Shown: piece after piece, positions 5,521-21,849 of the stretch | Position numbering within the stretch: the stretch's first letter is position 1 | Layout of the letters: each line of letters opens with the position of its first letter | NCBI GenBank assembly: GCA_013540605.1 | Contig: JABVCK010000009.1 | Coordinates: 100,341 to 164,340 of the forward strand | DNA from: Bacillota bacterium | GTDB lineage: Bacteria; Bacillota; Clostridia; Ch29 | DNA length: 64,000 bases | Reading direction: 5' to 3' | Position numbers and translations under genes: made by a program | Notes under the pieces: generated by a model | Seen by the model: the letters and a program-made list of their open reading frames with translations, nothing else | The model's database searches: none | What the model was told of the DNA's origin: nothing

Positions 5521-5541
5521 AAAAGCGGCATTGCCGCTTTT
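5521..5541 (+). terminator. Rho-independent terminator hairpin (AAAAGCGGCA-t-TGCCGCTTTT)
   Basis: Perfect 10-bp stem ending in a T-run, 27 nt after the focA stop. Confidence 0.6.
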
Positions 5542-5575
5542 GATTATTTATCCGGATGATAAGGAGGCAGAAATA

Positions 5576-6115: not shown

Positions 6116-6173
6116 TTTTGAAAAAAGTTTTAAAAAAGAGACTTGCGATTTTATGGAAGTATGTTATACTTAA

Positions 6174-6205
6174 TGTATACAATGCGAATACAATCAGCAT
6201 GCAAG
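6174..6205. promoter_or_regulatory. Candidate GntR operator: palindrome aTGTATACAat plus the shared tacaatcagcatGcaa box
   Basis: A T-N-GT-N-AC-N-A type palindrome sits just downstream of a TTGCGA-16-TATACT promoter-like pair in front of the gntR gene. The same 16-nt box recurs at 6943-6958. Confidence 0.5.
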
Positions 6206-6274: not shown

Positions 6275-6919
6275 ATGGCCAAAAATACACGAAAAGAAAT
6301 TGCATATGACTACTTGTATGAAGGGATTATTAGCAGTAAGATCCCGCCGGGAGCTCCTATCATAGAACAGGAGATATCAAACACCTTAGGCATCAGCCGT
6401 ACGCCTGTCCGCGAAGCGCTAAAACAGTTGGAGGCCCAAGGACTGGTTAAGTATGTCCCACAGCGCGGAACTTTCGCTGAAGAGATAGGCATGCAGGATG
6501 TGGAAGAAATTTTCGCTTTAAGAGAAGCACTTGAGATACTCGCTCTTAAAGTATCGATAGAAGTAATACCGGATGAAGAAATTCTCAAGATGGAGAAAAT
6601 GTTGAAAGCGCTTGATCATAATAGTACTTTTGAGGATTTTTATGAAAGCGACCGTAGTATTCATAACCTTATAGTAAGATATGGCCAGAATAGGAGGTTA
6701 AACGTTTTCCTTAACAGCTTAAATTCGCAGATTGAAATGCTACGCCGGATTTCAGCTGTAACTCCAAAAAGACTTGAAAAATCGAAACAGGAGCATATGG
6801 AAATTCTCATGGCATTGAAAAAACGCGACCAGGTGAAGGCTTCCAAAGCTTTGAGTGAGCATATCAGAAACGTCAAAGAAAGCGTTATCAGGACGTATCA
6901 GAATCAAAGGTATGTATAA
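6275..6919 (+). CDS. GntR-family transcriptional regulator (FadR/FCD C-terminal domain)
   Basis: N-terminal winged-HTH (TLGISRTPVREALKQLEAQGLV) and an FCD-like C-terminal domain. Flanked by TTGTATACAA-type palindromes. Confidence 0.8.
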   Translation: MAKNTRKEIAYDYLYEGIISSKIPPGAPIIEQEISNTLGISRTPVREALKQLEAQGLVKYVPQRGTFAEEIGMQDVEEIFALREALEILALKVSIEVIPDEEILKMEKMLKALDHNSTFEDFYESDRSIHNLIVRYGQNRRLNVFLNSLNSQIEMLRRISAVTPKRLEKSKQEHMEILMALKKRDQVKASKALSEHIRNVKESVIRTYQNQRYV

Positions 6920-6930
6920 AAATTTTTTTG

Positions 6931-6958
6931 ATACAGATTGTATACAATCAGCATACAA
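6931..6958. promoter_or_regulatory. Candidate GntR operator: perfect palindrome TTGTATACAA plus tacaatcagcatAcaa
   Basis: A perfect 10-bp palindrome overlaps a possible -35 (TTGTAT-17-TATATA) upstream of the first RraA-like gene. Confidence 0.5.
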
Positions 6959-7116
6959 AATATATACACCCGGGAAACATTATTGGCGAGGGGGGTGACT
7001 GTTAGGAGGAAAGCATAATCGCATGTATTTGCGTTGAAGCTGCTATACAGAAAGAAAACGGTAAGCACAGTATGTACAAGCATAAAAAGAGTTGATAGGA
7101 AGAGGGGAAATGCGAT

Positions 7117-7743
7117 ATGTCTTTAACAGAAAATGAACTGCTTGAGTTATTGAAACTACCCACGGGGAATATTTGCGATGCCAACGACAAGTGCGGCAAT
7201 ATGGATCCTGCAATAAAGCCTGTTGACCCAAAAACAAAAATGGCTGGGCCGGCTTATACAGTCCGATGTCAACCTGGAGATAATATCACCATCCATAAGG
7301 CAATCTACGAAGCACCAAAGGGATCAGTATTGGTAGTGGATGCCCATTCCTATATTGGAGCTGGACCATTCGGCGAAATCATGGCTATTGCCAGCCAGAA
7401 ACGTGGCCTTGCAGGGCTTGTTATAGATGGCGCTTGCCGCGATGCATCTGAAATAGAGGAACTGGGGTTTCCAGTATTCAGCCGTGCCATTAATCCAGGC
7501 GGTACAGTTAAAGAAAGTGTAGGAGAAACCGATCTGGTTATTCAGTGTGGAGGGGTTGTGGTCAGACCGGGGGATATTGTGGTAGGCGACCGTGACGGAG
7601 TAGTTGTTATTCCCCGGGAAAAAGCCCGGACGGTATTGGAGAAAGCAAAGGCTATAGCTGATAGAGAAGCGCAGGTAACGGAAATGCTTCTCCAGGGCAA
7701 AACAATTTTGGAGATATATCAATTCGAGAAATTGAAGGGCTGA
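7117..7743 (+). CDS. RraA-family protein (HMG/CHA aldolase or oxaloacetate decarboxylase-like), paralog 1
   Basis: 208 aa. Conserved RraA/MenG-fold core (GD-N-x-x-H, VVDA..GAG.FGE, GLVIDGACRD). Confidence 0.75.
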   Translation: MSLTENELLELLKLPTGNICDANDKCGNMDPAIKPVDPKTKMAGPAYTVRCQPGDNITIHKAIYEAPKGSVLVVDAHSYIGAGPFGEIMAIASQKRGLAGLVIDGACRDASEIEELGFPVFSRAINPGGTVKESVGETDLVIQCGGVVVRPGDIVVGDRDGVVVIPREKARTVLEKAKAIADREAQVTEMLLQGKTILEIYQFEKLKG

Positions 7744-7774
7744 TAAACACAATTCTAGCAGGAGGGATTAATAA

Positions 7775-8446
7775 ATGGAGAAGTTGAACAAAATAGATGT
7801 GTCCATTATAGAAGGCTTTAAAGCCCTGGATACGACATGTGTATCCGACGCCCTTGACCGTCTAGGGATTCCAGGAGGGTTGGAAGGAATAAAACCCGTG
7901 GTTGGTGGAACAACCATTTGTGGAACTGCTTTTACTGTGCACTATGTACCTTGTGGAATCGAGAAAGGAACTGTAGGGGATTTCCTGGATGATGTTGAAC
8001 CGGGTCAGGTTGTAGTTATAGACAACGGGGGCAGGACTTACTGCACGGTTTGGGGAGACTTGATGGCTATAAGTGCATCTAGGCGCGGCATAGAGGGAAC
8101 GGTAATTGACGGTGTCTGCCGGGATGTCCCTACCATTAAAAGAGTAAAGTATCCGATATTCACCAAAGGATACTATATGGTAACGGGTAAAGACCGTGTT
8201 GAGGTAGATGGGGTTAATGTGCCGGTGGCTGTGTCAGGGATTCAGGTTAAGCCTGGAGATATCATACTGGGTGATGACACAGGAGTAGTAGTAATACCGC
8301 AGGAGAGGGCAGGAGAAGTGTTAGAACTGGCAAAGAGTATTGCAGAGAAAGAGGCCCTTATGGAAAAGGAAATACTGGCAGGGAAAACCCTACGCGAAGC
8401 CCGTGCCAATGTGAACTATCATCACCTGCAAACAAGAGAGAAGTAG
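7775..8446 (+). CDS. RraA-family protein, paralog 2
   Basis: 223 aa. SDALDRLGI, VIDGVCRDV and GD motifs shared with paralog 1. Confidence 0.75.
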   Translation: MEKLNKIDVSIIEGFKALDTTCVSDALDRLGIPGGLEGIKPVVGGTTICGTAFTVHYVPCGIEKGTVGDFLDDVEPGQVVVIDNGGRTYCTVWGDLMAISASRRGIEGTVIDGVCRDVPTIKRVKYPIFTKGYYMVTGKDRVEVDGVNVPVAVSGIQVKPGDIILGDDTGVVVIPQERAGEVLELAKSIAEKEALMEKEILAGKTLREARANVNYHHLQTREK

Positions 8447-8580
8447 ACAACGTATAGAAGAGCGCAGAATGTAAGTGTTTCCAATAATTGATACTTACGT
8501 GTCTACGAAACAGGTTTAATTTTGTCGAAATATGTGATATTTTGAACTATATAATATCGGAAAATACCACTTAGTTCAGT

Positions 8581-8596
8581 ATTCCTAGCTAGGAAT
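8581..8596. promoter_or_regulatory. Perfect 16-bp palindrome ATTCCTAGCTAGGAAT between the promoter region and the RBS of the transporter operon (operator candidate)
   Basis: Exact dyad symmetry, 25 nt upstream of the SBP start codon and downstream of a TATAAT-like -10. Confidence 0.4.
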
Positions 8597-8620
8597 CAAA
8601 ATAAAAAAGGGGGTAAAAAA

Positions 8621-9802
8621 ATGAAAAAGACACTTGCATTGATATTTGCGTTGGCAATGGTTTTACCACTTGCTGCATGCAGTCAGGGGTCAAGCGATCC
8701 GGCCTCTGGTGAGCTTGAACCGATTAAGATTGGCGCAGTTTTGTCCCAGACCGGTACTGTTGCCCATGCCGGTATTAACGCTCAGAGGGCTTGTGAGATT
8801 CTACTTGAAGAAGTTAATGCTGCCGGCGGAATAAAGGGACGTAAGGTCGAGCTCATTGTTGAAAACTCCAATACAGAGCCGGAAAGGGCGGTTACCGCTG
8901 CTTTGAAACTCACAAACGAGAATAAGGTTCTGGCAATAATTGGCCCGGACAACACATCTACCGCGATTGCTGTAAGGGATCAGGTCGCTGAAGTAGATGA
9001 AATAGTGTCAATTTCTGTAACGGGTAGTTCTCCAAAACTCACCGAAGGCAATCCGCGCTGGTTTTTCCGCGGTGCAACTCCCGCAAACTACCAGATGAGC
9101 GCTCTCACCAAATATATGGTGGATGAGCTCAAGTTTACCAAATTTGCGGTACTGGCCGATGCTACCCTCACCGATCAAGCAGATGCACTAGTTGCAGACC
9201 TGGAAAAATACAATCTCAAACCGCTCGCAATTGAGACTCATAAGTCCGGTGATACAAACTTCAACGGTCAGCTTATTAAGATTAAGCCGTATAATCCCGA
9301 GGCAATAATCTTTATTGGCTACGTCACCGAATGCGCGAGCGCCATTAAACAAGCTCGTGACATGGGCATTGACGCTCAGTTTGCCGGCAGCATCGGTATA
9401 GTGTACCAGGAGCTCTGTGATATTGGTGGAGATATTGTTGAAGGAACGCTCGGCACCATAGGTTTTACTGTAGCCAACCCGGATCCGAGAGTACAGGAAT
9501 TTGCAAAGAAATTTAAAGAAAAATATGGCGAAGAACCTGACCATGCTGCGGGCCAAGCTTATGACCAGCTTTCCCTCGTTCTCGATGCTATAAGAAATGA
9601 AGATCTGAGCTTCGACCCGAAGGATATTAAAAGCGACAGAACCCTCATCCGCGACTACCTTGAAAACAAAACCTATGGCTATAATGGCCTCACCGCGATG
9701 ATCAATTACACTAAGGAGGAACATACCGCTTACAAAATGGTTAACGTAATGCAAATAAAGGGCGGGACTTGGACAATTCTTGTTCCATCTAGCGAATTAT
9801 AG
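8621..9802 (+). CDS. ABC transporter substrate-binding lipoprotein, Liv/branched-chain-amino-acid type (Peripla_BP_6)
   Basis: Lipoprotein signal peptide (LAACSQG). Type I periplasmic-binding fold typical of LivJ/LivK-like proteins. Confidence 0.75.
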   Translation: MKKTLALIFALAMVLPLAACSQGSSDPASGELEPIKIGAVLSQTGTVAHAGINAQRACEILLEEVNAAGGIKGRKVELIVENSNTEPERAVTAALKLTNENKVLAIIGPDNTSTAIAVRDQVAEVDEIVSISVTGSSPKLTEGNPRWFFRGATPANYQMSALTKYMVDELKFTKFAVLADATLTDQADALVADLEKYNLKPLAIETHKSGDTNFNGQLIKIKPYNPEAIIFIGYVTECASAIKQARDMGIDAQFAGSIGIVYQELCDIGGDIVEGTLGTIGFTVANPDPRVQEFAKKFKEKYGEEPDHAAGQAYDQLSLVLDAIRNEDLSFDPKDIKSDRTLIRDYLENKTYGYNGLTAMINYTKEEHTAYKMVNVMQIKGGTWTILVPSSEL

Positions 9803-9838
9803 AAACATGATTACAAAATCTGAATGGAGGACATTAAA

Positions 9839-11146
9839 ATGACAGTTGATTTACGCACAAAACTTGGACCCTTAACACTGAAAAACCCACTAGTTTCAGG
9901 AGGAGGACCGGTAGCCGGAACCTTGCAGCACATAAAGAATGCCTGCGATGCGGGCTTCGGTGCAATTGTCACAAAGACTGCTTCATATTATGGCGAATTC
10001 CAGAGATATCCAAGGCCTGTATATAATATTTGCGACATAAGAGTGGCGGCAGACGATCCGATCGGTATCTCCGAATGCTCCTGGATGCATAACGACCACA
10101 ACTCTGTATACCCGCCTCATCAGTTTGTTAAATTCTTGCCGGAGGCATCAGAGTATTGCAAGAAGAATGACTGCGTTCTTATTGGTAGTTTTGCAGGTGC
10201 CGGGCTGGAACAGTGGGAAAGGATGGCAAGGGATTATGTAGATGCAGGATGCCAGGCACTCGAATTGAACTTCTGTTGTCCTTACCCACAGGTAATGCCT
10301 GAGACCGCGCAAGGGAACGAGCACCTTATCGGCCAGACATTTGGGGATAACCCCGCCCTTGGCGCTGAAGTCATCAAGAGGTTGAAGCAGATTGTCGATG
10401 TTCCCATATTCCCGAAAATGCCGCCTACTGCTAGAAAGGACATTGTTAACATAGCAAAGATGTATAAAGAAGCTGGTGCCGATGGGATCACCATCTATGC
10501 TAACTCCATGGTTCTTAAGATAGACATTGAAACTGGTGAACCGATGGGCTGGGGGGCTTCGATAGGCAGCTCGCACGGCCATATGCTTGATACATGCCAG
10601 GACACCGCTAAAATAGCCAAAGAGGTTCCGGATTTCGCAATAATGTCTGGCCGTGGAGCCAGGTACTGGTACGATTGTATTGAGCTTCTCATGGCAGGCG
10701 CTGCTTCGGTACAGTACTCCGCTGCTATACACGTGTATGGGCTGAAGCATGTTAAGAGTATGCTCAATGATATGGAAAACTGGCTTGAGCGTAAAGGTTA
10801 TAAGTCTATTGAACAGGTTAAGGGGCTAGCTTTACCGAAGATCTACCGCTCCGCAGATGTTAAGAACAGAGTAAAAGCGTTGGTTGCGAAGGTAGATGCT
10901 AGTAAGTGTATCGCCTGCGGTCGCTGCGCTGAGGTATGCTTCTATGACGCTGCCGAGTTGTTTGTTAAAAATGGAAAAGGTGCTGCAAAAATCAATCAGG
11001 ACAACTGCGCCGGCTGCACCATCTGTGGACAAGTGTGTCCCAAGAAGTGTATTAGCTTTACTGAAAGGGCAGAAGAAATCGAATACCTTAGAGCGCTGGG
11101 TTCTGCTCATCCGGATCTGCTGCCTGATATCTTCGGCGAAAAATAA
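9839..11146 (+). CDS. Dihydroorotate/dihydropyrimidine dehydrogenase-family FMN oxidoreductase (PreA-like) with a C-terminal 2x[4Fe-4S] ferredoxin domain
   Basis: TIM-barrel DHOD-like core. C-terminal CIACGRCAEVC and CAGCTICGQVCP motifs. GGAGGA RBS 6 nt before the ATG at 9839. Confidence 0.65.
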   Translation: MTVDLRTKLGPLTLKNPLVSGGGPVAGTLQHIKNACDAGFGAIVTKTASYYGEFQRYPRPVYNICDIRVAADDPIGISECSWMHNDHNSVYPPHQFVKFLPEASEYCKKNDCVLIGSFAGAGLEQWERMARDYVDAGCQALELNFCCPYPQVMPETAQGNEHLIGQTFGDNPALGAEVIKRLKQIVDVPIFPKMPPTARKDIVNIAKMYKEAGADGITIYANSMVLKIDIETGEPMGWGASIGSSHGHMLDTCQDTAKIAKEVPDFAIMSGRGARYWYDCIELLMAGAASVQYSAAIHVYGLKHVKSMLNDMENWLERKGYKSIEQVKGLALPKIYRSADVKNRVKALVAKVDASKCIACGRCAEVCFYDAAELFVKNGKGAAKINQDNCAGCTICGQVCPKKCISFTERAEEIEYLRALGSAHPDLLPDIFGEK

Positions 11147-11173
11147 TGTGATATCCCTCGCTTTTGTTTAATT

Positions 11174-11211
11174 GCATATAGCGGTCTTATAATACTACGG
11201 CCGCTATATGC
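11174..11211 (+). terminator. Strong hairpin (11-bp perfect stem GCATATAGCGG/CCGCTATATGC) after the DHOD-like gene. Candidate terminator or attenuator.
   Basis: Perfect stem, but the 3' tail is not clearly U-rich. A similar TATAGCGG...CCGCTATA hairpin at 21850-21881 precedes another copy of the GGGGACATT repeat. Confidence 0.35.
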
Positions 11212-11251
11212 AGAACACAAGGTTTATTGCATGATTGAATATGGCTTGAGT

Positions 11252-11417
11252 GGGGACATTCCGCGGCAAGGAATACCCGCGTAGCAGCGGTGTGTCCCCA
11301 TACCGATCGGGGACATTCCGCGGCAAGGAATACCCGCGTAGCAGCGGTGTGTCCCCATACCGATCGGGGACATTCCGCGGCAAGGAATACCCGCGTAGCA
11401 GCGGTGTGTCCCCATAC
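11252..11417. repeat. Tandem array of a 57-bp hairpin repeat: 2 full units plus 1 slightly shorter unit. Unit is GGGGACATTCCGCGGCAAGGAATACCCGCGTAGCAGCGGTGTGTCCCCATACC(GATC).
   Basis: Units at 11252-11308, 11309-11365 and 11366-11417 are identical. The outer stem is GGGGACA/TGTCCCC and the inner stem is CGCGG/CCGCG. The array ends 18 nt before the leuC-like ATG, directly abutting the RBS AAAGGAGGA. Confidence 0.9.
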
Positions 11418-11435
11418 CTTAAAGGAGGAATTTTT

Positions 11436-12671
11436 ATGGGGCATAGCATGATCTACAAAATACTTGCTAAAAAAATAGGCGATCAGGATTTCAAGGCTGG
11501 AGAAATATATATGACACCCGCTGATCTTGTCTTCACCCATGAGGTCGGTACAGCTGGAACGATGAGGGTGCTTGACAAGATTGGTGCGACTGAGTTGTAT
11601 CCGATAGAGATGGTAATAATATCCGACCATTTTGTGCCTGCGTCTATACTAACCCATGCAATAAATCAGAAAAAGGCCCGTGATTTTGCAAAGAAATATG
11701 GCATTAGAAATTATTTTGAAATAGGGCGCGCTGGCATAGGGCATCAGGTACTTATTGAAAAAGGATTTATTCGCCCGGGAGAGATAGCCATAGCTACCGA
11801 CGCACACGCTACCACCTACGGAGCGCTGGGCTGTCTCGGTATAGGCGTTGGCGTTACCGACATGGCTGTGCTGCTCGCCAGCGGACAATATTGGCTAAAA
11901 TATCCGAAGGTACTCGGTATACGGTTGGAAGGGAAGCTGCGTCCCGGAGTCAGCGCTAAGGATGTAGCGCTTAAGCTTTTAGGCGATCTTGGCACAGATA
12001 ATCTTATTTATTGGATGGTAGAGTTTTATGGATCGGGTGTTTCAACGCTCAGTATAGACAGCCGCGCATGTTTGTGCAACATGATGTCAGAAGGTGGAGT
12101 AAAGTCATGTCTTGTTGCGCCTGACAATCTTGCGATGGAATATGTAAGTGCCAGAACGGACAAAAAATTCACTCCCTTTGTTCCCGATGAAGACGCATAC
12201 TATGACAAGTATTTAACGTTGGATCTTGACAAAGTTGAACCGATGGTCGCGATTCCCGATACACCGACAAATTGTGTGCCCCGAAAGAGCGTAAGCGGTG
12301 TGGAAATAGATCAGGCATTTATCGGTTCGTGTACTAACGGCCGTATTGAAGATTTAAGGATTGCGGCTGCTATATTGAAGGGGAAAAAGGTGCATCCCAA
12401 TGTTAGGTTGATCGTGTCTCCAGCGTCACACGAGATCTGGCAGCAAGCGCTCAACGAAGGCTTACTGACTATTTTTAACCAGAGCGGGGCGGTAGTCACT
12501 AACCCGACATGTGGAGCATGCATTGGAGCGCATGGTTTGCTTGCCCCAGGTGAGGTGTGCATCGCCACTTCAAACAGAAACTTCAAAGGCAGAATGGGAA
12601 GTATTGACGCGAAGATATATCTAGCTTCTCCTGAAACAGTAGCTTACGCTGCGCTGACAGGCAGGATATAA
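11436..12671 (+). CDS. Aconitase-family dehydratase large subunit. LeuC/HacA-like, short archaeal-type 3-isopropylmalate / homoaconitate / methylmalate dehydratase.
   Basis: 412 aa with aconitase-family Fe-S ligand regions. The ORF track's 11250 start reads through the repeat array (GTFRGKEYPRSSGVSPYRS x3) and is an artefact. The ATG at 11436 has an RBS. Confidence 0.75.
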   Translation: MGHSMIYKILAKKIGDQDFKAGEIYMTPADLVFTHEVGTAGTMRVLDKIGATELYPIEMVIISDHFVPASILTHAINQKKARDFAKKYGIRNYFEIGRAGIGHQVLIEKGFIRPGEIAIATDAHATTYGALGCLGIGVGVTDMAVLLASGQYWLKYPKVLGIRLEGKLRPGVSAKDVALKLLGDLGTDNLIYWMVEFYGSGVSTLSIDSRACLCNMMSEGGVKSCLVAPDNLAMEYVSARTDKKFTPFVPDEDAYYDKYLTLDLDKVEPMVAIPDTPTNCVPRKSVSGVEIDQAFIGSCTNGRIEDLRIAAAILKGKKVHPNVRLIVSPASHEIWQQALNEGLLTIFNQSGAVVTNPTCGACIGAHGLLAPGEVCIATSNRNFKGRMGSIDAKIYLASPETVAYAALTGRI

Positions 12672-12695
12672 CCAACCATAGAGGGAGGGAAACCC

Positions 12696-13229
12696 ATGAG
12701 TCAGGTAATAAAAAAGAAGGTTGTCGCAATACTTGGAGACGATGTAGACACCGATGTGATATTCCCGGCTAGATACTTGGGCACATTTGATGAACAAGAG
12801 ACAGCTAATCATCTTTTTGAAGATGTGGATCCGTCTTTTAGAAATAAAGTAAAAAATGGAGGCGTGGTTATCGTAGGTAAGAACTTCGGATGCGGATCGG
12901 CCCGTGAACAAGCTGCAATGGCGCTTAAATATGCGGGAGTGACTATGGTAGTAGCGGTGTCTTACAATAGATCGTTTTATAGAAATGCAATAAACAACGG
13001 GCTGCTGCTAATGGAGTTTGAAAATCCGGAAGACTACCAGGCTTTTAAGGAAGATAACCAACTTATAGTGGATTATGCCTCCGGTATAATAAAAAACGAA
13101 ACAACAGGAAGAGAAATAAGATGCCTTGCTCCGAACAAATTTATACTTGATATAATCTCCGCGGGTGGAATATGTCAGCTTATAATAAAAAATCAAAGTA
13201 AAAACGGGGGAAAGCTATGCTTACTGTAA
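12696..13229 (+). CDS. Aconitase-family dehydratase small subunit (LeuD-like swivel domain)
   Basis: 177 aa. GDDVDTDVIFPARYL motif typical of LeuD. Confidence 0.75.
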   Translation: MSQVIKKKVVAILGDDVDTDVIFPARYLGTFDEQETANHLFEDVDPSFRNKVKNGGVVIVGKNFGCGSAREQAAMALKYAGVTMVVAVSYNRSFYRNAINNGLLLMEFENPEDYQAFKEDNQLIVDYASGIIKNETTGREIRCLAPNKFILDIISAGGICQLIIKNQSKNGGKLCLL

Positions 13230-14083
13230 TTATTATTGGCGTAACAGTAGGGCTCATATATGGATTAGTTGCGATAGGATATAGCCTTATCTGGCAATCT
13301 ATGAGTTTGGTGCATTTTGCGCAGGGCGATCTGCTGATGCTAGGGGGGTTTTTAGCCATAACATTAATTGGCATGAAGATTTCCAACCTTTTCGTAGTGC
13401 TTCTTCTGGTATTCGTCATGATGGCACTGGTTGGCCTCATAATCCAGCGCGGAGCGTATTGTTACATACCACAGCACAGGGGTACGACGAGAATCATTGC
13501 TACGCTCGGCGTTGGCATGATTTTAAGAAACATGGCCGTACTTATTTGGGGTACGAGGGCGAGAGGACTTCCCGATAATTTCTTTCCAGGCGGTTCACTG
13601 AAATTCAGTGGAGTGGCTATAAGGCCTGTATATTACTGGTCTTTCTTCATTGGTATAATGCTTGTCGTAGCGCTCGTAATCTTTCTGTACCGCACAAAGT
13701 TTGGCATGGCGATGCGTCTAACAGCATATAACTATTCTCTTGCTGAGCTTATGGGAATCAACCCGGGTATATATCAGACCCTTGCTTTTATGCTTGCTAC
13801 CGGCATCACCGGTGTGGCCGGCATACTCGTAAGCCCAATCAGCTTTGTAAGCTATCGAATGGGGCTCGCTTTTGGCGTTAAGGGTTTTGCCGCTGCGATA
13901 ATCGGAGGGCTTGACAGCTTGCCCGGTGCTTTAATAGGCGGCATAACAATAGGTCTTATAGAGGTGTTCTTCGGCAGATATATATCCGGATACGTGGATG
14001 TTCTTATCTTCGGTATAATGATAATCGTCCTTATCTTTAAACCGCGCGGGTTCTTTGGTAAGGTCCATGCTGAAAAGATATAA
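13217..14083 (+). CDS. Branched-chain amino acid-type ABC transporter permease (LivH-like)
   Basis: 288-aa polytopic membrane protein with LivH-family motifs. Confidence 0.75.
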   Translation: MLTVIIIGVTVGLIYGLVAIGYSLIWQSMSLVHFAQGDLLMLGGFLAITLIGMKISNLFVVLLLVFVMMALVGLIIQRGAYCYIPQHRGTTRIIATLGVGMILRNMAVLIWGTRARGLPDNFFPGGSLKFSGVAIRPVYYWSFFIGIMLVVALVIFLYRTKFGMAMRLTAYNYSLAELMGINPGIYQTLAFMLATGITGVAGILVSPISFVSYRMGLAFGVKGFAAAIIGGLDSLPGALIGGITIGLIEVFFGRYISGYVDVLIFGIMIIVLIFKPRGFFGKVHAEKI

Positions 14084-14097
14084 AGGAGGCATGAACG

Positions 14098-15066
14098 ATG
14101 TCAAATATTAAAAAGTATTATGGGATTATAATAATAATCGCCCTTCTTGCCATGCCTTTTGTAATAAACAGCTATTATTGGATACGCCTGCTTACTACGA
14201 TGGGGATCTATCTCATTATAGCAATGGGCCTTAATATGCTGCTTGGATATACTGGGCTAGTCAGTATAGGCCAGGCTGGTATCTTTGGCATTGCTGCATA
14301 TACGGCAGGACTTTTGATGAAAAACGCCGGGATAAGCTTCTGGGTATCTTTTATAATAGTTTTGATCCTTGGAGCTTTTATTGGCATGTTCATCGGTATT
14401 ATAACGCTAAAACTAAAGCAGGCATATCTAGCTATAGTGACTCTAGGGCTTGCGCTTATGACCCAAACCATACTGCTCAACTGGCGTGAGGTTACCGGCG
14501 GTTTTGAGGGACTGTTAAGGGTTCCCAAGCCTACTATTTTCGGGTTTGTGATTAAAGCCCCGAGCCATGTATTGTTTATGGTGACTGTGTTCTGTATAAT
14601 CACATTTTTTATCATACAGAATATATCCAAATCCAAATGGGGTAGAAGTATGCGCGCAGTGAGAGACGACGATATTGCAGCCAGCATGATGGGCATTAAC
14701 GTAGTAAAGACAAAATTATTGGCGTTTACGTTATCTGCGGTTCTTGCTTCAGTCAGCGGAGGCTTATATGCAGGACTTTATGGAGCCATGTTCCCTGATT
14801 ATTTCAGCATGGATCTTTCGGTGTTGTTCCTATGCATGGTTGTACTTGGCGGCATGGGCACAGTGATAGGCCCAATAATAGGTGCACTCCTTATAACATT
14901 CGGTCTCGAAGCACTCCGTGGCCTCGGTGAAGGGCAGATGCTTGTTTATGGCATATTCATAGTTGCTGTTTGTGTATTAAAACCGGGCGGATTTGTTGAG
15001 GTTGTCGGAGACATCAGGAATCTGTTTGCCTCAAAAAAGAGAAGGGAGGCGGAAGAGAATGCCTGA
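14098..15066 (+). CDS. Branched-chain amino acid-type ABC transporter permease (LivM-like)
   Basis: 322-aa polytopic membrane protein. Confidence 0.75.
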   Translation: MSNIKKYYGIIIIIALLAMPFVINSYYWIRLLTTMGIYLIIAMGLNMLLGYTGLVSIGQAGIFGIAAYTAGLLMKNAGISFWVSFIIVLILGAFIGMFIGIITLKLKQAYLAIVTLGLALMTQTILLNWREVTGGFEGLLRVPKPTIFGFVIKAPSHVLFMVTVFCIITFFIIQNISKSKWGRSMRAVRDDDIAASMMGINVVKTKLLAFTLSAVLASVSGGLYAGLYGAMFPDYFSMDLSVLFLCMVVLGGMGTVIGPIIGALLITFGLEALRGLGEGQMLVYGIFIVAVCVLKPGGFVEVVGDIRNLFASKKRREAEENA

Positions 15067-15862
15067 TACAATCATTAAGATTGAAAACATATCAAAGAAT
15101 TTTGGCGGCATTAAGGCGCTTATAAATGTCAGTACTGAAATAGAAAAAGGCAAAATACACGCGATCATAGGAGCCAACGGTTCTGGTAAAACAACACTAA
15201 TAAACATTATTACGGGATTCTACAAGCCGGATAGTGGCAGTATAATCTACAAGGGCCAAGATTTAAGGCAAAAGGCCCCGCATGAGATTGCGTGCCTGGG
15301 TATGGGCAGGACATTCCAGAATCTCCGCCTCTTCCACACCATGGACGTTGCAGAAAATATAAAGACCGCACTTCATTCGAGACTCAAAGAATCATTCGCG
15401 GCGTCTATTGCAGGTATTCCAGCAGTCAAGAAGCTTGAGAAAGAGGCAGATAAAGAGGTGGACAGGATACTTGAAATGCTGGATCTCACTGCCATAAAAA
15501 ACACCAAGGTTACCAGTTTGCCGTATGGTATGAGACGGTTGGTCGAAATAGCGAGAGCGTTGAGTCTGAGACCTGACGTACTTTTTCTGGATGAACCGGT
15601 TGCAGGTATGAACAATACCGAGAGTATTGAGCTTATGAAGAGAATAAAAAGCCTGGTTGATACGGGCATAACCGTTGTTCTTATAGAGCACGATATGAAA
15701 GTTGTTATGGGCTTCTCTGAAGAGATAACGGTTCTGGACCATGGGGAAGTAATTGCACGCGGCACTCCGAAAGAAGTCCAGAATAACCCAAAAGTTATTG
15801 AGGCATATCTCGGAAAAAGCCGTGAAGACAAAAAGGATGAGGAGGTCAGGAATAATGAGTGA
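15059..15862 (+). CDS. ABC transporter ATP-binding protein (LivG-like)
   Basis: Walker A (GANGSGKTT), signature and Walker B motifs. The ATG at 15059 overlaps the livM stop. Confidence 0.8.
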   Translation: MPDTIIKIENISKNFGGIKALINVSTEIEKGKIHAIIGANGSGKTTLINIITGFYKPDSGSIIYKGQDLRQKAPHEIACLGMGRTFQNLRLFHTMDVAENIKTALHSRLKESFAASIAGIPAVKKLEKEADKEVDRILEMLDLTAIKNTKVTSLPYGMRRLVEIARALSLRPDVLFLDEPVAGMNNTESIELMKRIKSLVDTGITVVLIEHDMKVVMGFSEEITVLDHGEVIARGTPKEVQNNPKVIEAYLGKSREDKKDEEVRNNE

Positions 15863-16574
15863 AAACGTACTGGTGATAAATGACCTCAACGTAATGTACG
15901 GTAAAATGATACATGCGATAAAGGACTTATCCATGGATGTGCGGCAAGGCGAGATAGTTGCAGTACTTGGTGCAAACGGTGCTGGAAAATCTACTCTTCT
16001 AAAAACAATTTCCGGTCTATTAAAGCCCAAAACCGGTTCAATAAAAATAAATAACCAGGAGTTGGTTGGGATCCCTGCACACAAAGTTCTTAGTTATGGA
16101 GTGGCACATGTTCCGGAAGGCAGAATGATAGTCCCGCATTTCTCGGTTAAGGAAAACCTTCTTGTCGGTGCTTATATCGCCGATAAGAAGAGCGTAAACG
16201 GAAATATTGAAAGGGTTATGGAAATATTCCCGAAACTGAAGGAACGTCTAAACCAGACTGCAGGCACATTGAGCGGAGGAGAACAGCAGATGCTCGCCAT
16301 TGGCCGTGCGCTCATGTCTGAACCAAAGATACTTCTACTTGACGAGCCTTCGCTTGGGCTTGCGCCCATTCTTGTAGATAAAGTAATGGAGATGGTCCAG
16401 CTTATCAACAAGACGCAGGGAGTTACTGTAATGCTGGTCGAACAGAATGTATATATAGCTCTTGACATTGCAGACCGTGCTTACGTCCTTGAGAACGGAT
16501 ACATTACGATGAGCGGTTCCTCGGCAGAGCTTAAAAAGGACGAAACGCTCAAAAAGCAGTATCTCGCCGGATAG
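15855..16574 (+). CDS. ABC transporter ATP-binding protein (LivF-like)
   Basis: Walker A (GANGAGKST) and LSGGEQQML signature. The start overlaps the livG stop (ATGAGTGA). Confidence 0.8.
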   Translation: MSENVLVINDLNVMYGKMIHAIKDLSMDVRQGEIVAVLGANGAGKSTLLKTISGLLKPKTGSIKINNQELVGIPAHKVLSYGVAHVPEGRMIVPHFSVKENLLVGAYIADKKSVNGNIERVMEIFPKLKERLNQTAGTLSGGEQQMLAIGRALMSEPKILLLDEPSLGLAPILVDKVMEMVQLINKTQGVTVMLVEQNVYIALDIADRAYVLENGYITMSGSSAELKKDETLKKQYLAG

Positions 16575-16623
16575 CTGCTCTGAGAGCAAAATATTATAAC
16601 ATTTTACAGGAGGAGATACTATT

Positions 16624-17313
16624 ATGCGTGAAGTTAAGAGGTTAGCAAAAAGACCGGGAAAGGAAATAATTGAGGGATTTATGAAGGTATCGACCTGCAA
16701 TGTATCCGACGCTTTGGATAAGCTTAATATGCCGTGCGGCATCTACGGGATAAGGCCGACATACGACTGCCCTAAGGTAGTCGGACCAGCGATAACTATG
16801 AGGGTTGTCCCATATGGACCCAATAACCCGGAAGGGCACATGGGAGTTGACCCGCTTTCGGCGGCGGAGCCCGGGGATGTCATAGTAATAGACAATTCCG
16901 GACGCATCGATCAGAACTGCTGGGGGGAGATAGTTACATATTCCGCTATCCAGGTCGGAGTGGCGGGTGTAATAATCGATGGAGCGACTCGCGATGTGGA
17001 TATCATCAAGGAAACAAATTTCCCGGTATATGCGCGTGGGATAGTACCTCTTACTGCGAGAGGCAGGAATGTGCAAGGTGACTACAACTGCCTTGTGCAG
17101 ATTGGCGGCGTGCAGGTAAGCCCTGGGGATTTAGTGATGGCCGACGTAAACGGAGTGGTGGTAATCCCTCAGGACAGGGCTGAAGAAGTGTTAGCAGTGA
17201 GTCTGGATCTTTATCAGCGCGAGCTTGATATAGTGGAAAAGATAAAATCCGGACAGTCATTCCTTGAAGTTGATAAGAAATCTGGGTATGATAAAATGCT
17301 GCAAAAAAAATAA
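16624..17313 (+). CDS. RraA-family protein, paralog 3
   Basis: 229 aa. SDALDKL, VIDNSGR and IIDGATRD motifs. Confidence 0.75.
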   Translation: MREVKRLAKRPGKEIIEGFMKVSTCNVSDALDKLNMPCGIYGIRPTYDCPKVVGPAITMRVVPYGPNNPEGHMGVDPLSAAEPGDVIVIDNSGRIDQNCWGEIVTYSAIQVGVAGVIIDGATRDVDIIKETNFPVYARGIVPLTARGRNVQGDYNCLVQIGGVQVSPGDLVMADVNGVVVIPQDRAEEVLAVSLDLYQRELDIVEKIKSGQSFLEVDKKSGYDKMLQKK

Positions 17314-17332
17314 ACTTAAGGAGATATCAAAA

Positions 17333-18577
17333 ATGCAGCTTACAAATTATGAAAATCGAATGCTTAACGGAGAAATGGGAGAACCAATTCGTAAAGCTAT
17401 GGAGATATTGGTGGCGCTGGGCGAGAGTTATGATGCAAAAAGAATGGTTGAGGTCAGAAATGTTCATCTGGCAGGCGCTTCTATAGTCGTAACGGGCGAA
17501 GCCGGTGTAAAATTCGCTGAAAGTATGCAGTGCCAGGGAGGATGCTTCTGTACCCGTACCACTTCCAATCCGACAGCACTGGACTGTGCTAAGTGGCGTG
17601 AGCTAGGAATTGCTGAAAAAGATGCCGAACTGCAGGGCAGATTGACTAACGCATTAGCAAAATTGGGCGCCCAGATAATCTCTACTTGCACGCCATATTT
17701 CGTGGGTAACGCACCCCGATTGGGCGAGCATGTGGCATGGGGAGAGTCCTCTGCGGTCATCTATGCCAACTCGGTGCTCGGGGCGAGGACAAATCGCGAA
17801 GGCGGGCCAAGCGGCTTGGCTGCAGCCCTCTGCGGCAGAGTACCGGAATGCGGTTTCCATCTTAAAGAAAATCGTTACGGCAAGCTGCTGATCAATGTAA
17901 CGATACCTTTAAGCGGCGTTACCGATTACGGCTGTTTGGGATATTTTGCAGGCATGCTCTCATCGCAGGATACACCTGTCTTCACAGGTATACCAGATAC
18001 AGCGACTCCCGACGAATTAAAAGGGCTGTCGGCTGCCCTGGGGTCTTCCGGAGCGGTAACAATGTTCCATGCCGTAGGAGTAACCCCTGAGGCCCCGGAC
18101 TTAGAAACAGCTTTTGGAGGCAAGAAGCCGGAAACCGTTGTGGAGTTCGGTGAGAAGGAAAAGAAGATGATGCTTGATAAACTGGACAGGGAAGAATCCA
18201 GCGATGTGGACTGGGTAATGCTTGGCTGCCCACATGCTTCTATGTTTGAAATAGCCGACATTTCACGTGCTTTAGAAGGGAAGAAAATAAATCCTGATGT
18301 AACGCTCTGGGTAGGTACTTCTATCCAGGTCAAGACGATAGCCGACCGTATGGGATATACCGACATAATTGAAAAGGCTGGCGGCAAAGTGGTGTGTGAC
18401 ACCTGCCCTGTTCTCGCGCCGACAAGGGATCTGGCCCAGAAGATGGGCTATAAAGTGCTTACTACTAATTCTGCGAAGATGGCGCACTACTCTCCGGGAC
18501 AGTTCGGGCTTATGACGCATTACGGAAACATTGATAAGATAATAGATGCGGCCGTTACCGGGAAATGGAAGAGGTGA
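17333..18577 (+). CDS. AcnX-type hydro-lyase large subunit (DUF521, aconitase X catalytic domain)
   Basis: 414 aa. N-terminal MQLTNYENRMLNGEMGEP, characteristic of DUF521/AcnX. AAGGAGAT RBS before the ATG at 17333. Confidence 0.65.
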   Translation: MQLTNYENRMLNGEMGEPIRKAMEILVALGESYDAKRMVEVRNVHLAGASIVVTGEAGVKFAESMQCQGGCFCTRTTSNPTALDCAKWRELGIAEKDAELQGRLTNALAKLGAQIISTCTPYFVGNAPRLGEHVAWGESSAVIYANSVLGARTNREGGPSGLAAALCGRVPECGFHLKENRYGKLLINVTIPLSGVTDYGCLGYFAGMLSSQDTPVFTGIPDTATPDELKGLSAALGSSGAVTMFHAVGVTPEAPDLETAFGGKKPETVVEFGEKEKKMMLDKLDREESSDVDWVMLGCPHASMFEIADISRALEGKKINPDVTLWVGTSIQVKTIADRMGYTDIIEKAGGKVVCDTCPVLAPTRDLAQKMGYKVLTTNSAKMAHYSPGQFGLMTHYGNIDKIIDAAVTGKWKR

Positions 18578-18582
18578 GTCAG

Positions 18583-19002
18583 ATGACAAAAGAGATAATC
18601 CTAAAAGGTAGAAAGGTTGTGAAGGGCAAAGCAGCTGGCTATGCGGTTGTGTCGACAGAGCCGATCAGTTTTAACGGGGGCGTTGATCCGGCTACTGGTA
18701 TAATGACGGAAGAGGAACATCCTATCAAGGATGTGAACATTGCCGGGAAAGTGCTGGTTTTTCCGACAGGTAAGGGTTCTACCGGCGGTTCTAACCGTAT
18801 TTACGATATGGCTGACCGCAAGACTGCCCCAGTCGCTTTCATACAAGCAAATGCCGAACCAATTACTACGATTGGCGCGATAATGGCGGATATCCCCGTT
18901 GTAGATAAACTCGACCAGGATCCTTTCGCAGTGATTGAAACCGGCGATTACGTAGAGGTTGATGCGGATAATGGAATAGTCAAAGTGATCAAAAAGGAGT
19001 AA
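18583..19002 (+). CDS. AcnX-type hydro-lyase small subunit (DUF126 swivel domain)
   Basis: 139 aa with the KGKAAGYAVVSTEPISFNGGVDP...FPTGKGSTGGS pattern of DUF126. Translationally coupled to the large subunit. Confidence 0.65.
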   Translation: MTKEIILKGRKVVKGKAAGYAVVSTEPISFNGGVDPATGIMTEEEHPIKDVNIAGKVLVFPTGKGSTGGSNRIYDMADRKTAPVAFIQANAEPITTIGAIMADIPVVDKLDQDPFAVIETGDYVEVDADNGIVKVIKKE

Positions 19003-19021
19003 GAATAAGGAGAGATGCTGG

Positions 19022-19681
19022 ATGAAAGCTACAAAAGAATTTGTAGATGCCTTTATGAAACTGTCAACCCCCACGGTATCTGACGCTATGGACAAGTTGG
19101 GAATTAGGGGCGGCTGTGAAGGGCTCATGCCGATAGTGGTTGGCAAAAAATTTGTTGGTCCGGCATTTACGGTGAAATTTATTCCGGTCGGCACCGTAAA
19201 AACAAAAGCAGGCGACTTTATTGACGAAGCCAAGGAAGGTGATGTCATTGTAATTGATAATGCCGGACGTACCTGGTGTACCGTATGGGGAGATATTCTT
19301 ACCTATGTTGCTGTTAAAAAAAGGATAGCCGGTACTGTCATTGATGGTGTCTGCCGCGACGTAGATGGCATTCGGGAACTGGATTATCCAATGTATACTA
19401 AAGGACATTTTATGGTAACCGGCAAGGATAGGGTTATGATGGAGTCGATGAATGAGCCGGTGTCCATCTGCGATGTGCAAGTTAAGCCAGGGGACCTCGT
19501 AATGGCTGATCAGTCTGGTGTTCTTATCATTCCTATTGATAAGGCGGAGGAAATTCTTCAAACAGCGGTTATGATAAATGAAACTGAGGAGAAGATTATT
19601 GAAGAGATTAAGAACGGTTCCACTCTGGTTGCAGCGAGGAAGAAGCTAAAATATGATACTTTACAGAGGCCCGGAGAATAA
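19022..19681 (+). CDS. RraA-family protein, paralog 4
   Basis: 219 aa. SDAMDKLGI, VIDNAGR and VIDGVCRDV motifs. Confidence 0.75.
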   Translation: MKATKEFVDAFMKLSTPTVSDAMDKLGIRGGCEGLMPIVVGKKFVGPAFTVKFIPVGTVKTKAGDFIDEAKEGDVIVIDNAGRTWCTVWGDILTYVAVKKRIAGTVIDGVCRDVDGIRELDYPMYTKGHFMVTGKDRVMMESMNEPVSICDVQVKPGDLVMADQSGVLIIPIDKAEEILQTAVMINETEEKIIEEIKNGSTLVAARKKLKYDTLQRPGE

Positions 19682-19683
19682 CT

Positions 19684-20718
19684 ATGAAAAACTATTCTAT
19701 TGCACTACTTCCCGGAGATGGAGTAGGTCCGGAAGTTATCGATGGCGCTAAGCAGGTCCTTGAAGCGGTAGAGAAAAAGTACCAGGTAAAGTTCAATTTC
19801 GAAGAATACCTAATAGGGAAAAAGGCCCTTGACGAAAAAGGTGACCAACTGCCGCTTGATACCCTTAACGGTATCAAGAATGCTGACGCGGCACTTATGG
19901 CAACACCGGCAGTCGCCGAACTACCCCCTCCAAGTGTAGTTGGAAGATTGCGCCGTGAGTTAAATCTATACGCCGATGTGCGCATGGTAAAGTCCTTTGA
20001 TGGTACATGGTCATTAAAACCGGGTATAGATATAGTATTCATACGGGAATGTACAGAGGGCTTTCTTGCTGATAGAAACCTTTACCGTGGGTTTGGTGAA
20101 TTTATGCCGACCGAAGATTGTGTTATGTCACTACGGGTACTGACAGGCGAAGCCTGTCGTAGGATAGCAAAATTTGCGTTTGACTATGCTGCCGCAACCG
20201 GCAGGAAAACCTTAACCGTAGCACACAAAGCGAATGTGTTGAGATGGGGCTGTGGTTTCTTCCTTGAAAAGGTCCGCGAGGTTTCAAAAAAATATCCGGC
20301 AGTTACACTTAAAGAGGAATCCGTAGATAGCCTTGCAAACCATCTAATCACGGATCCGCTTCAATACGACATTATACTTACCACTAATATGTTTGGCGAT
20401 ATATTATCCGACGAGGGAGCGGCACTTGTTTCGAATTTGGTATCGACTGCAAATATCGGCGAATTTGCCTCCGTATACGCACCAGTAGACCACAACCCCA
20501 GATGGCACGAGGCAGGCAAAGATATAACAAATCCTCTGCCTCTCATTCTATGTACCGGTATGATGCTCATGCATCTGGGTATGCATAAGGCATGTGCAGA
20601 TATAGAACGCGCAGTAAGTGCAGTTCTAAAGTGCAATATCAAGACGATGGATATGAACGGTAATAGTAGCACTTCGGAAGTTATTAAAAGCGTTTGTGAG
20701 AGATTCAAACACATATAA
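19684..20718 (+). CDS. Isocitrate/isopropylmalate/tartrate dehydrogenase-family NAD(P)-dependent beta-hydroxyacid oxidative decarboxylase
   Basis: 344 aa. N-terminal LLPGDGVGPEV typical of the LeuB/ICDH family. Internal NMFGDILSD motif. Confidence 0.75.
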   Translation: MKNYSIALLPGDGVGPEVIDGAKQVLEAVEKKYQVKFNFEEYLIGKKALDEKGDQLPLDTLNGIKNADAALMATPAVAELPPPSVVGRLRRELNLYADVRMVKSFDGTWSLKPGIDIVFIRECTEGFLADRNLYRGFGEFMPTEDCVMSLRVLTGEACRRIAKFAFDYAAATGRKTLTVAHKANVLRWGCGFFLEKVREVSKKYPAVTLKEESVDSLANHLITDPLQYDIILTTNMFGDILSDEGAALVSNLVSTANIGEFASVYAPVDHNPRWHEAGKDITNPLPLILCTGMMLMHLGMHKACADIERAVSAVLKCNIKTMDMNGNSSTSEVIKSVCERFKHI

Positions 20719-20814
20719 GCGAGATCAATGCCCGGCGGGACATGATGTTTTGCCGGGCAAAATGCATGATTTGCGGTGAGAATAGGAGTATAATATAAAA
20801 TAAACAATGAAACA

Positions 20815-21684: not shown

Positions 21685-21737
21685 AGTTAGTAATAGAATA
21701 TAGACAGACCGGTACATATCTAGTATAATTATTTATG

Positions 21738-21832: not shown

Positions 21833-21849
21833 TATAAACAGCTGATTTT

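Follow-up and report, generated by a model that had tools for sequence, protein, structure and literature searches.

Gene content of the locus

In the present study, we analysed a window of 64,000 nt (the whole stretch of DNA, on contig JABVCK010000009.1 of a Bacillota bacterium; positions below are those of the window), in which a co-directional gene cluster at 6275-20718 combines a GntR/FCD-family regulator, a Liv-type ABC importer, a two-subunit AcnX hydro-lyase, four RraA-like proteins (RraA1 to RraA4) and three further enzymes that resemble PreA, LeuCD and the isocitrate/isopropylmalate dehydrogenases (IDH-like). Very probably, the genes of this cluster work together as a single conserved module that handles a free carboxylic acid. 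Families were called through Pfam and NCBIfam profile searches of the translated open reading frames (ORFs), and every family named by the first-pass annotation, made from the letters of the window, was verified there and in the ORF listing, all on the plus strand as it had described (Table 1). Mechanical ORF starts lay too early for LeuC (11250), LivG, LivF and the large AcnX subunit, AcnX-L (17264); they were corrected with public gene calls on identical DNA (metagenome-assembled genome GCA_030017455.1, contig JASEIP010000013.1), which give lengths of 411, 267, 239 and 414 aa, respectively.

The tight spacing noted in the first-pass annotation holds within blocks (-13 to +49 nt, with a 13-nt overlap between the adjacent genes of AcnX-L and the small subunit, AcnX-S) but not throughout, the wider gaps being confined to 6920-7116, 8447-8620, 11147-11435 and 20719-20814. 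The scan of plus-strand intergenic gaps returned no consensus intrinsic terminator. Because the next operon opens with a molybdenum/tungsten cofactor (Moco) riboswitch at 21732-21847, the 3' limit of the cluster is placed at either 20718 or 21684, the latter with panB included. PanB passes its equivalog model TIGR00222 (324 bits, cut-off 208); the gene is syntenic in loci L001-L004 and L086 (L-numbers label the homologous loci compared) and was not found in the other loci. With the exception of panB, equivalog-level scores indicate that no enzyme of the cluster is a housekeeping orthologue.

Table 1. Features of the AcnX-RraA cluster and its immediate flanks
Feature	Position	Strand	Basis or remark
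Operator-like site upstream of gntR	6173..6205		palindrome ATGTATACAA and shared 17-mer ATACAATCAGCATGCAA
GntR/FCD-family transcriptional regulator	6275..6919	+	Pfam GntR, FCD
Second operator-like site, in the gntR-RraA1 gap	6938..6959		TTGTATACAA and ATACAATCAGCATACAA
RraA type 1 (RraA1), like LigK and 4-hydroxy-4-methyl-2-oxoglutarate (HMG)/4-carboxy-4-hydroxy-2-oxoadipate (CHA) aldolase	7117..7743	+	PF03737, NF006731, 3NOJ match
RraA type 2 (RraA2)	7775..8446	+	PF03737, orthogroup
Liv-type Peripla_BP_6 lipoprotein, substrate-binding protein (SBP)	8621..9802	+	Pfam
PreA/dihydroorotate dehydrogenase (DHOD)-like flavin mononucleotide (FMN) TIM-barrel with C-terminal 2x[4Fe-4S] ferredoxin domain	9824..11146	+	DHO_dh, two CxxCxxCxxxC motifs
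Stem-loop GCATATAGCGG...CCGCTATATGC	11174..11211	+	directly 3' of the PreA-like stop codon, no U-tract
57-nt perfect tandem repeat, 2.9 copies	11252..11418	+	long hairpin in every unit
LeuC-like Fe-S hydro-lyase large subunit, archaeal isopropylmalate isomerase (IPMI)/homoaconitase (HACN) type	11436..12671	+	Pfam, NCBIfam
LeuD-like small subunit, specificity loop YLGT	12696..13229	+	Pfam, NCBIfam
LivH-type permease	13217..14083	+	Pfam
LivM-type permease	14098..15066	+	Pfam
LivG-type ATPase	15059..15862	+	Pfam, public gene call
LivF-type ATPase	15855..16574	+	Pfam, public gene call
RraA type 3 (RraA3)	16624..17313	+	PF03737, tree
AcnX large subunit, uncharacterised bacterial Type-II subclass	17333..18577	+	PF04412, E 1e-143
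AcnX small (swivel) subunit	18565..19002	+	PF01989, E 9e-29
RraA type 2, second copy (RraA4)	19022..19681	+	PF03737, tree
Divergent isocitrate/isopropylmalate-dehydrogenase-family enzyme (IDH-like)	19684..20718	+	PF00180 (Iso_dh)
panB (ketopantoate hydroxymethyltransferase)	20815..21684	+	TIGR00222; pathway membership uncertain

Co-conservation of the gene set across genomes

We scanned one genome per species with an AcnX alignment and compared the six-frame ORFs around the resulting 80 loci with the window proteins; the bacterial count of 27 loci takes in two that were added outside that scan. At least one RraA-like gene was found within 10 kb in 22 of the 27 bacterial AcnX loci (at least two in 16, at least three in 13), as against none of 52 archaeal and none of four Chloroflexi loci. 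The adjacency of AcnX and RraA thus separates bacterial from archaeal loci with a Fisher p of 4e-15, and the gene set is therefore not a chance juxtaposition. In the reverse test, metagenome contigs were scanned with an alignment of the PreA-like protein, and the hits with usable flanks (L092-L096) all carried RraA genes, the majority additionally having LeuCD-like, AcnX, UbiD or IDH-like genes; UbiX genes also appeared on these PreA-like-anchored contigs. The first-pass annotation had regarded the cluster as one coherent unit and had suggested a neighbourhood search as the check: both anchors recover the module, so the objection that its parts might show no co-conservation fails. The unit is co-conserved across phyla, and in L086, whose AcnX is 86% identical, the same 16-gene order is found, panB included.

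Firmicute-type loci (L017-L020, L024, L029) place the genes in the order RraA3-RraA1-RraA2 alongside AcnX-L and AcnX-S and frequently add a GntR regulator or a PreA-like, LeuCD-like or IDH-like gene, with GntR homologues adjoining the module in L017, L018, L019, L024, L088 and L095. The Cupriavidus module consists of LysR followed by AcnX-L, AcnX-S, TctC, a lactonase and three RraA genes; Variovorax repeats this arrangement without the lactonase, and Achromobacter has AcnX, TctC and two RraA genes. In Halalkalibacter (L088), GntR is followed by TctCBA, RraA, RraA, AcnX-L, AcnX-S, RraA and PrpD. The aerobic versions are minimal, comprising a regulator, a TctC transporter, AcnX and RraA genes.

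Among anaerobes, the recurring neighbours are UbiD, UbiX, a TfrA-like flavoprotein and PrpD-family proteins, and the recurring transporters are of the TRAP, TAXI, DASS and TTT types; most anaerobic relatives carry UbiD/UbiX. Single occurrences include an aldehyde:ferredoxin oxidoreductase (L017) and a GarL-like HpcH/HpaI aldolase (L010), the latter together with a xylose-isomerase-like barrel, while a beta-propeller lactonase was seen in L005 and L102. For the UbiD, fumarate-reductase (FRD)-like, PrpD-like, lactonase and HpcH neighbours, NCBIfam naming yields generic families alone. The hosts of the module are gut, digester, groundwater and soil bacteria, as well as the aerobes Cupriavidus, Variovorax, Achromobacter and Priestia; the plasmid collection contained one member of the AcnX clade only, unannotated. 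These comparisons show that the conserved core is a two-subunit AcnX with one member of each of three RraA orthogroups, beside a carboxylate importer, to which the PreA-like, LeuCD-like and IDH-like enzymes are recurrent dedicated accessories, as are UbiD/UbiX in most anaerobic relatives.

A separate arrangement was observed in L028 (876-13675, Thermodesulfobacteriota), with two AcnX large-subunit genes, TctABC, an IDH-like enzyme, an isochorismatase-like hydrolase and a PreA-like enzyme and without RraA; this locus additionally encodes an Amidohydro_2 protein (LigI/LigJ family).

AcnX is predicted to be a novel dehydratase

The first-pass annotation's call of a two-subunit AcnX was sustained by matches to both Pfam families, and is refined in one respect: the nearest relative is a phosphomevalonate dehydratase, not aconitase proper. 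The closest solved structure is that of Thermococcus phosphomevalonate dehydratase 7CNR (E 1e-80), with the Agrobacterium hydroxyproline dehydratase second, and AcnX-S matches 7CNR_B (E 3e-33) and has kept the GKGST motif. The large subunit is about 60% identical to homologues in Cupriavidus, Achromobacter, Variovorax, Bordetella, Paraburkholderia, Paenibacillus, Priestia and Halalkalibacter; the AcnX pair shows 42-47% identity to archaeal sequences.

With residue roles taken from PMC8184944, the equivalents of Cys110/283/342, Glu129, Ser130/131, Lys361 and Tyr365 did not vary among the AcnX sequences compared (21 RraA-linked ones from bacteria and 52 from archaea). The substrate landmarks are changed: the phosphate-site residue 53 is Val in 20 of the 21 RraA-linked proteins as against Asn, Thr or Ser in archaea, the Gln45 position is His in all 21, and Ala47 of the window AcnX takes the place of Asp203, the amine ligand for hydroxyproline, a position that is Ala or Pro across the clade, whose Cys pattern is that of a [4Fe-4S] triad in place of [2Fe-2S]. 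Because the cluster ligands and catalytic residues are kept and the substrate landmarks altered, AcnX is predicted to be a beta-hydroxy-acid dehydratase that is neither of the known AcnX enzymes, and it should act at its [4Fe-4S] site. Bacterial subclasses that lack both landmark sets, Type-IIc to IIf, are on record as uncharacterised (PMC8184944).

The archaeal modified mevalonate pathway offers a partial parallel, since its Type-IIb AcnX is the closest characterised relative, with identical cluster ligands and catalytic residues, and the pairing of AcnX with UbiD/UbiX is also met in anaerobic bacterial relatives. Of the 52 archaeal AcnX loci (among L027 and L030-L085), 23 have a UbiD-like gene no more than 10 kb away, which matches the expected association of phosphomevalonate dehydratase and decarboxylase, and so do several bacterial loci; this adjacency suggests that the AcnX product is a stable enoate. 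In contrast to the archaeal pathway, the cluster lacks kinase genes for mevalonate or isopentenyl phosphate, and its context is made up of transporters, regulators and RraA genes. Isoprenoid biosynthesis was therefore rejected, the phosphate pocket being altered and the kinase genes not at the locus. Hydroxyproline degradation was rejected as well: the Pfam families and the two-domain hydro-lyase architecture are shared with hydroxyproline dehydratase, but Asp203 is not kept, the Cys residues are of the [4Fe-4S] type, AcnX-L reaches 306 bits against a cut-off of 700 for NF051439, and the gene context is a different one.

Three RraA orthogroups

The four RraA-like proteins match PF03737 with E values of 1e-38 to 1e-48. 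RraA1 just passes NF006731 (CHA-aldolase/oxaloacetate-decarboxylase; 183 against 179), scores 157 against 304.5 for TIGR02798, and matches the Pseudomonas putida HMG/CHA aldolase 3NOJ at 38% identity (E 3e-38); RraA2, RraA3 and RraA4 fall below both models and pass no NCBIfam model. The equivalents of three 3NOJ residues whose roles Wang and colleagues reportedly described in 2010, namely catalytic Arg123, the metal ligand Asp124 and, on the C-terminal helix, Glu199', are kept in all four window paralogs and in almost all homologues. Position 102 is acidic (D/E) in the four paralogs; it is Gly in many type-3 proteins and Glu in the RraA3 of the window. A role as regulator of RNase E was rejected, given lengths of 208-229 aa as against about 161 aa, scores of 56-96 bits against 136 (NF006875 / TIGR02998), and the presence of the aldolase C-terminal helix.

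A neighbour-joining tree resolved three ancient orthogroups, with type 1 clustering with 3NOJ, type 2 containing both RraA2 and RraA4 (48% identical to each other) and type 3 containing RraA3. The four paralogs counted in the first-pass annotation are thus present, but they amount to three orthogroups plus one duplicate, and their multiplicity, which had been called unusual, turns out to be normal: three is the usual number for the module in many phyla, and three-RraA loci represent each orthogroup once. In L010 an HpcH/HpaI pyruvate aldolase was found and type 1 RraA was not seen, on a contig that is short. RraA2 is 57-73% identical to the type-2 genes of L017-L036, catalytic residues retained; RraA3 shares 65-67% identity with the genes that adjoin AcnX in L010 and L088, and RraA4 is 66-70% identical to genes of L088 and L010. 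Since the RraA1-RraA2-SBP-PreA-LeuCD stretch is similar to L093 and L096 and the RraA3-AcnX-RraA4 stretch to Halalkalibacter and L010 (65-70% identity), the window cluster looks like two half-modules fused. Because the gene order is conserved and the genes are tightly spaced or overlapping, we infer that the three RraA types may form a hetero-oligomer.

Accessory enzymes and the importer

The LeuC-like and LeuD-like proteins pass subfamily models alone (TIGR01343, TIGR02086, TIGR02087) and fall short of the equivalogs, at 428 against 611 (LEU2) and 159 against 246 (leud). LeuC-like orthologues, 46-56% identical, occur in L018, L019 and L093-L096. The LeuD loop, YLGT in the window, reads YLSI or YLV[YLHT] in relatives, forms that we take to resemble IPMI, homoaconitase presumably having YLRT. 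The IDH-like enzyme misses all NCBIfam cut-offs (best score 272 against 410); its best PDB match is homoisocitrate dehydrogenase (HICDH), with Gly at the position of Arg85, which we assume to set specificity in TtHICDH as Leu91 does in isopropylmalate dehydrogenase (IPMDH) and Ser113/Asn115 in isocitrate dehydrogenase (ICDH). Neither leuA nor ilv nor preT was found in the cluster. Leucine biosynthesis was rejected on three counts, namely the missing leuA, an IDH-like enzyme below every cut-off and a LeuC protein recognised at the subfamily level only, in agreement with the first-pass annotation, which had argued against this pathway. The combination of a two-subunit archaeal-type hydro-lyase with a beta-decarboxylating dehydrogenase is shared with the LeuCD/LeuB elongation modules (leucine, citramalate-isoleucine, homocitrate/coenzyme B) and with DmdAB of nicotinate fermentation; the present cluster differs from these in having no LeuA, CimA or AksA, a Gly at the specificity position of its dehydrogenase, and a context of transporter, RraA and AcnX genes.

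The PreA-like protein keeps the equivalents of Lys574, Asn668 and Cys671 of pig dihydropyrimidine dehydrogenase together with both ferredoxin motifs. Pyrimidine reduction was nevertheless provisionally rejected, with a score of 172 against 335 for NF006183 and no preT. The SBP stays below its LIV-I equivalog (NF011933, 118 against 477), and in an alignment to LivJ, Ile stands at the position of the alpha-ammonium ligand Glu226 and Ala at that of Tyr18. The TctABC, TRAP, TAXI and DASS transporters of the relatives fit a di- or tricarboxylate substrate, as the first-pass annotation had anticipated.

Regulatory and non-coding elements

The TTGTATACAA palindrome also lies on both sides of the gntR gene in L018 (57% identical), at 9187 and 9954, and three copies, at 5287, 5402 and 5462, lie in L088 between the divergent gntR and tctC genes. 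Flanking gntR in three distant module-bearing lineages, it is likely to be an operator and can be read as a phylogenetic footprint for GntR control, not as proof of co-transcription. A third TGTATACAAT match at 29253, in a non-coding stretch and without the extended motif, was judged to be due to chance.

The stem-loop behind the PreA-like gene is conserved in L086 at 3970-4006 and may serve in transcript processing or stabilisation within the operon, or as a partial terminator. The tandem repeat, a lineage-specific insertion, was absent from L086 and from the remainder of the window; folding of the whole PreA-like/LeuC-like spacer that holds it gave z = -5.8.

A proposed pathway and its alternatives

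For the cluster at 6275-20718, perhaps extending to 21684, we propose a GntR/FCD-controlled catabolic route in which a free hydroxylated or branched polycarboxylic acid would be imported and degraded without coenzyme A (CoA) or ATP activation; we give the mechanism, all six steps taken jointly, a probability of roughly 0.4. Our best guess at the substrate is a citrate- or CHA-like tertiary hydroxy-polycarboxylate. Further candidates are the citramalate, aconitate, itaconate-like acids and aromatic ring-fission products suggested in the first-pass annotation, as well as hydroxycitrate, tartrate, aldarates, CHA/4-oxalomesaconate, HMG, 3-hydroxy-3-methylglutarate and furan or pyrone dicarboxylates. 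After uptake by the ABC system, the acid itself or an intermediate would displace GntR from the TTGTATACAA operators (step 1). AcnX would interconvert a tertiary beta-hydroxy acid of the citrate or CHA type and its 2-enoate (step 2), upon which the LigK-like type 1 RraA would cleave the 4-hydroxy-2-oxo-acid form to pyruvate and a 2-oxo acid (step 3), with RraA2, RraA3 and RraA4 either partnering type 1 in a hetero-oligomer or decarboxylating an oxaloacetate-type product (step 4). The LeuCD-like and IDH-like enzymes might turn a 2-alkylmalate-type intermediate into a 2-oxo acid by isomerisation and oxidative decarboxylation (step 5), and the PreA-like flavo-FeS enzyme might reduce an enoate intermediate with low-potential electrons from ferredoxin/Rnf (step 6).

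A wider form of this proposal, which we hold tentatively, takes the AcnX subclass and a heteromer of three ancient RraA paralogs as the core of an unrecognised, widespread CoA- and ATP-independent degradation of polycarboxylates, which in anaerobes would join mevalonate-pathway-like dehydration, decarboxylation of the free acid by prenylated-FMN (UbiD) enzymes and ferredoxin-linked, DHOD-type enoate reduction.

Several observations sit uneasily with the proposed route. The window contains no UbiD/UbiX, and the cluster no PreT partner gene for the PreA-like enzyme; the IPMI-like LeuD loop suggests that the side chain of the LeuCD substrate is an alkyl group and not a carboxylate, a poor fit to CHA or citrate. 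The best PDB relatives of the SBP, at low score, are binders of branched-chain amino acids, and Na:alanine symporters occur in two related loci (L024, L026). The need for three RraA types is left unexplained by the scheme, and its catabolic direction is inferred solely from the regulators and importers. Furthermore, by analogy with Type-I/IIa AcnX, an alpha-substituted beta-hydroxy acid could be converted directly to a 2-oxo acid.

That last point favours the main rival, a less likely one, which follows the logic of sugar-acid catabolism. The AcnX substrate would here be a dicarboxylate or tricarboxylate of the 2,3-dihydroxy type, be it an aldarate, a tartrate or a hydroxycitrate-like compound, perhaps taken up as lactone; its dehydration would yield a 2-keto-3-deoxy acid or 3-substituted oxaloacetate, and RraA would serve as 2-keto-3-deoxy-acid aldolase, dehydratase/decarboxylase or beta-decarboxylase, comparable to the Entner-Doudoroff, Dahms and glucarate routes. 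The characterised Type-I/IIa enzymes do remove a beta-hydroxyl beside an alpha-heteroatom to give an imino or oxo acid (PMC8184944); the minimal aerobic clusters require no redox step; and the lactonases, the GarL-like aldolase with its barrel neighbour and the aldehyde:ferredoxin oxidoreductase of the relatives would suit such a route. FlDet of Flavobacterium UMI-01, an RraA-family 2-keto-3-deoxy-glucarate dehydratase/decarboxylase, provides a precedent for an RraA-fold enzyme that handles 2-oxo dicarboxylic sugar acids beyond aldol cleavage (PMC8563752). However, in direct comparison FlDet is 25-35% identical to each of the three RraA types, equidistant from all and therefore uninformative, and its gene context differs. 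The affinity of AcnX to phosphomevalonate dehydratase, a maker of stable enoates, and the company of UbiD enoate decarboxylases in anaerobes also speak against sugar acids, and it is difficult to assign the LeuCD-like and PreA-like enzymes a role in such a route.

It is improbable that the cluster runs in the synthetic, reductive direction, as a CoA-independent remodelling or elongation of 2-oxo acids that serves as electron sink or yields a branched 2-oxo acid. RraA would then condense pyruvate with a 2-oxo acid, AcnX dehydrate the aldol, UbiD (in relatives) decarboxylate and PreA reduce the enone, with one further carbon added by LeuCD and IDH. All enzymes of the set use or yield 2-oxo acids, and aldol addition, dehydration, decarboxylation and reduction would each run downhill; panB, whose product uses 2-oxoisovalerate, is syntenic within the lineage, the LeuD loop is IPMI-like, and some hosts, Caproicibacter and Pseudoflavonifractor among them, are anaerobes that elongate chains or ferment. 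Against this direction, binding-protein-dependent importers and GntR/FCD or LysR regulators, typical of catabolic operons, flank the module everywhere; the reductase and decarboxylase do not occur in the aerobic versions, and a LeuA-type synthase is not present. We know of no precedent for such a pathway.

Still less likely is the catabolism of an unusual amino acid (hydroxyproline-like or a 4-substituted glutamate), with Liv-type import and AcnX acting on an alpha-amino beta-hydroxy acid. The solved relatives of the SBP and the two symporter loci lean that way, but the clade has lost Asp203 and the [2Fe-2S] Cys pattern, the SBP has neither Glu226 nor Tyr18 of LivJ, most relatives have TTT, TRAP or DASS carboxylate transporters, and no aminotransferase, deaminase or imine reductase was found in any of the loci. 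A chance meeting of leucine LeuCD/LeuB, a branched-chain amino acid importer, the pyrimidine reductase PreA and the RNase regulator RraA can be dismissed almost entirely: each family does have a well-known housekeeping member, the subfamily models that LeuC passes include true archaeal-type IPMI, and the neighbouring panB scores as a bona fide housekeeping gene, but two independent anchors recover the set across phyla, the IDH-like, PreA-like, SBP and AcnX proteins lie below all equivalog cut-offs, the RraA proteins fail the RraA equivalog and carry aldolase features (length, helix and catalytic residues), and leuA, ilv and preT are missing.

Relation to known systems and significance

The known systems close to the proposed polycarboxylate route include LigI/LigJ/LigK and GalB/GalC of protocatechuate-4,5-cleavage and gallate degradation, where a hydratase acts on an unsaturated tricarboxylate and an RraA-fold class II aldolase/oxaloacetate decarboxylase then releases pyruvate. 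The likeness extends to the 3NOJ identity and NF006731 match of RraA1, and to the lactonase or Amidohydro_2 genes that some relatives add. In contrast to the Lig/Gal systems, the hydratase here is the Fe-S enzyme AcnX, not the amidohydrolase-fold LigJ or GalB; two extra RraA orthogroups are obligatory companions, and TIGR02798 (ligK_PcmE) is not reached; nothing in those systems corresponds to the LeuCD-like, IDH-like and PreA-like genes; and the hosts include strict anaerobes without ring-cleaving dioxygenases. The searchable full-text literature held no description of an AcnX-RraA link or of this gene combination, which upholds the earlier impression that the pathway had not been described: the families are all known, and what that literature leaves undescribed is their combination, this subclass of AcnX and the set of three RraA paralogs.

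One of four uncharacterised AcnX Type-II subclasses (PMC8184944) hereby gains a conserved genetic context and testable substrates. RraA-fold proteins, commonly annotated as RNase regulators or methyltransferases, are predicted to form a three-paralog lyase set in this module, which would correct thousands of annotations. If the proposal is true, AcnX Type-IIc to IIf would receive a function for the first time and the RraA fold a fourth activity or first heteromeric form; if UbiD and a ferredoxin-linked DHOD-type reductase act on free acids in the anaerobic version, a new CoA-free route of organic-acid fermentation would be added. Cupriavidus, Variovorax, Achromobacter and Priestia are tractable aerobes that carry the module, which makes genetics and biochemistry feasible.

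Other features of the window

Upstream of the cluster, the formate dehydrogenase catalytic subunit (1900-4587) is one selenoprotein gene, split into two mechanical ORFs by an in-frame TGA at 2959-2961 within HCARL-U-HSSTVAG; it is flanked by genes for a Nuo51-like subunit (55-1848), FocA (4625-5494) and a beta-carbonic anhydrase (5531-6115). The Moco riboswitch scores 68.7 bits and has a promoter-like site (11/12 positions) at 21701-21729; 3' of it, at 21865-29000, lie genes for a tungstate/molybdate ABC transporter, two MoeA proteins, MoaA, MoaC and a MOSC protein. The stretch at 29100-30450, about 1.3 kb with no convincing ORF and with a negative GC skew unlike the remaining window, might be what is left of a decayed gene or of a mobile element. 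Further downstream, an operon for the Rnf complex (RnfC, RnfD and further genes; 32159-37307) and one for histidine biosynthesis (HisZ-like, HisD, HisC and others; 48813-56450) fit an anaerobic, ferredoxin-based metabolism. Additionally, a Clostridiales-2 small RNA (Rfam RF02937, 65 bits) on the minus strand at 58300-58425 supports a Clostridia-type host.

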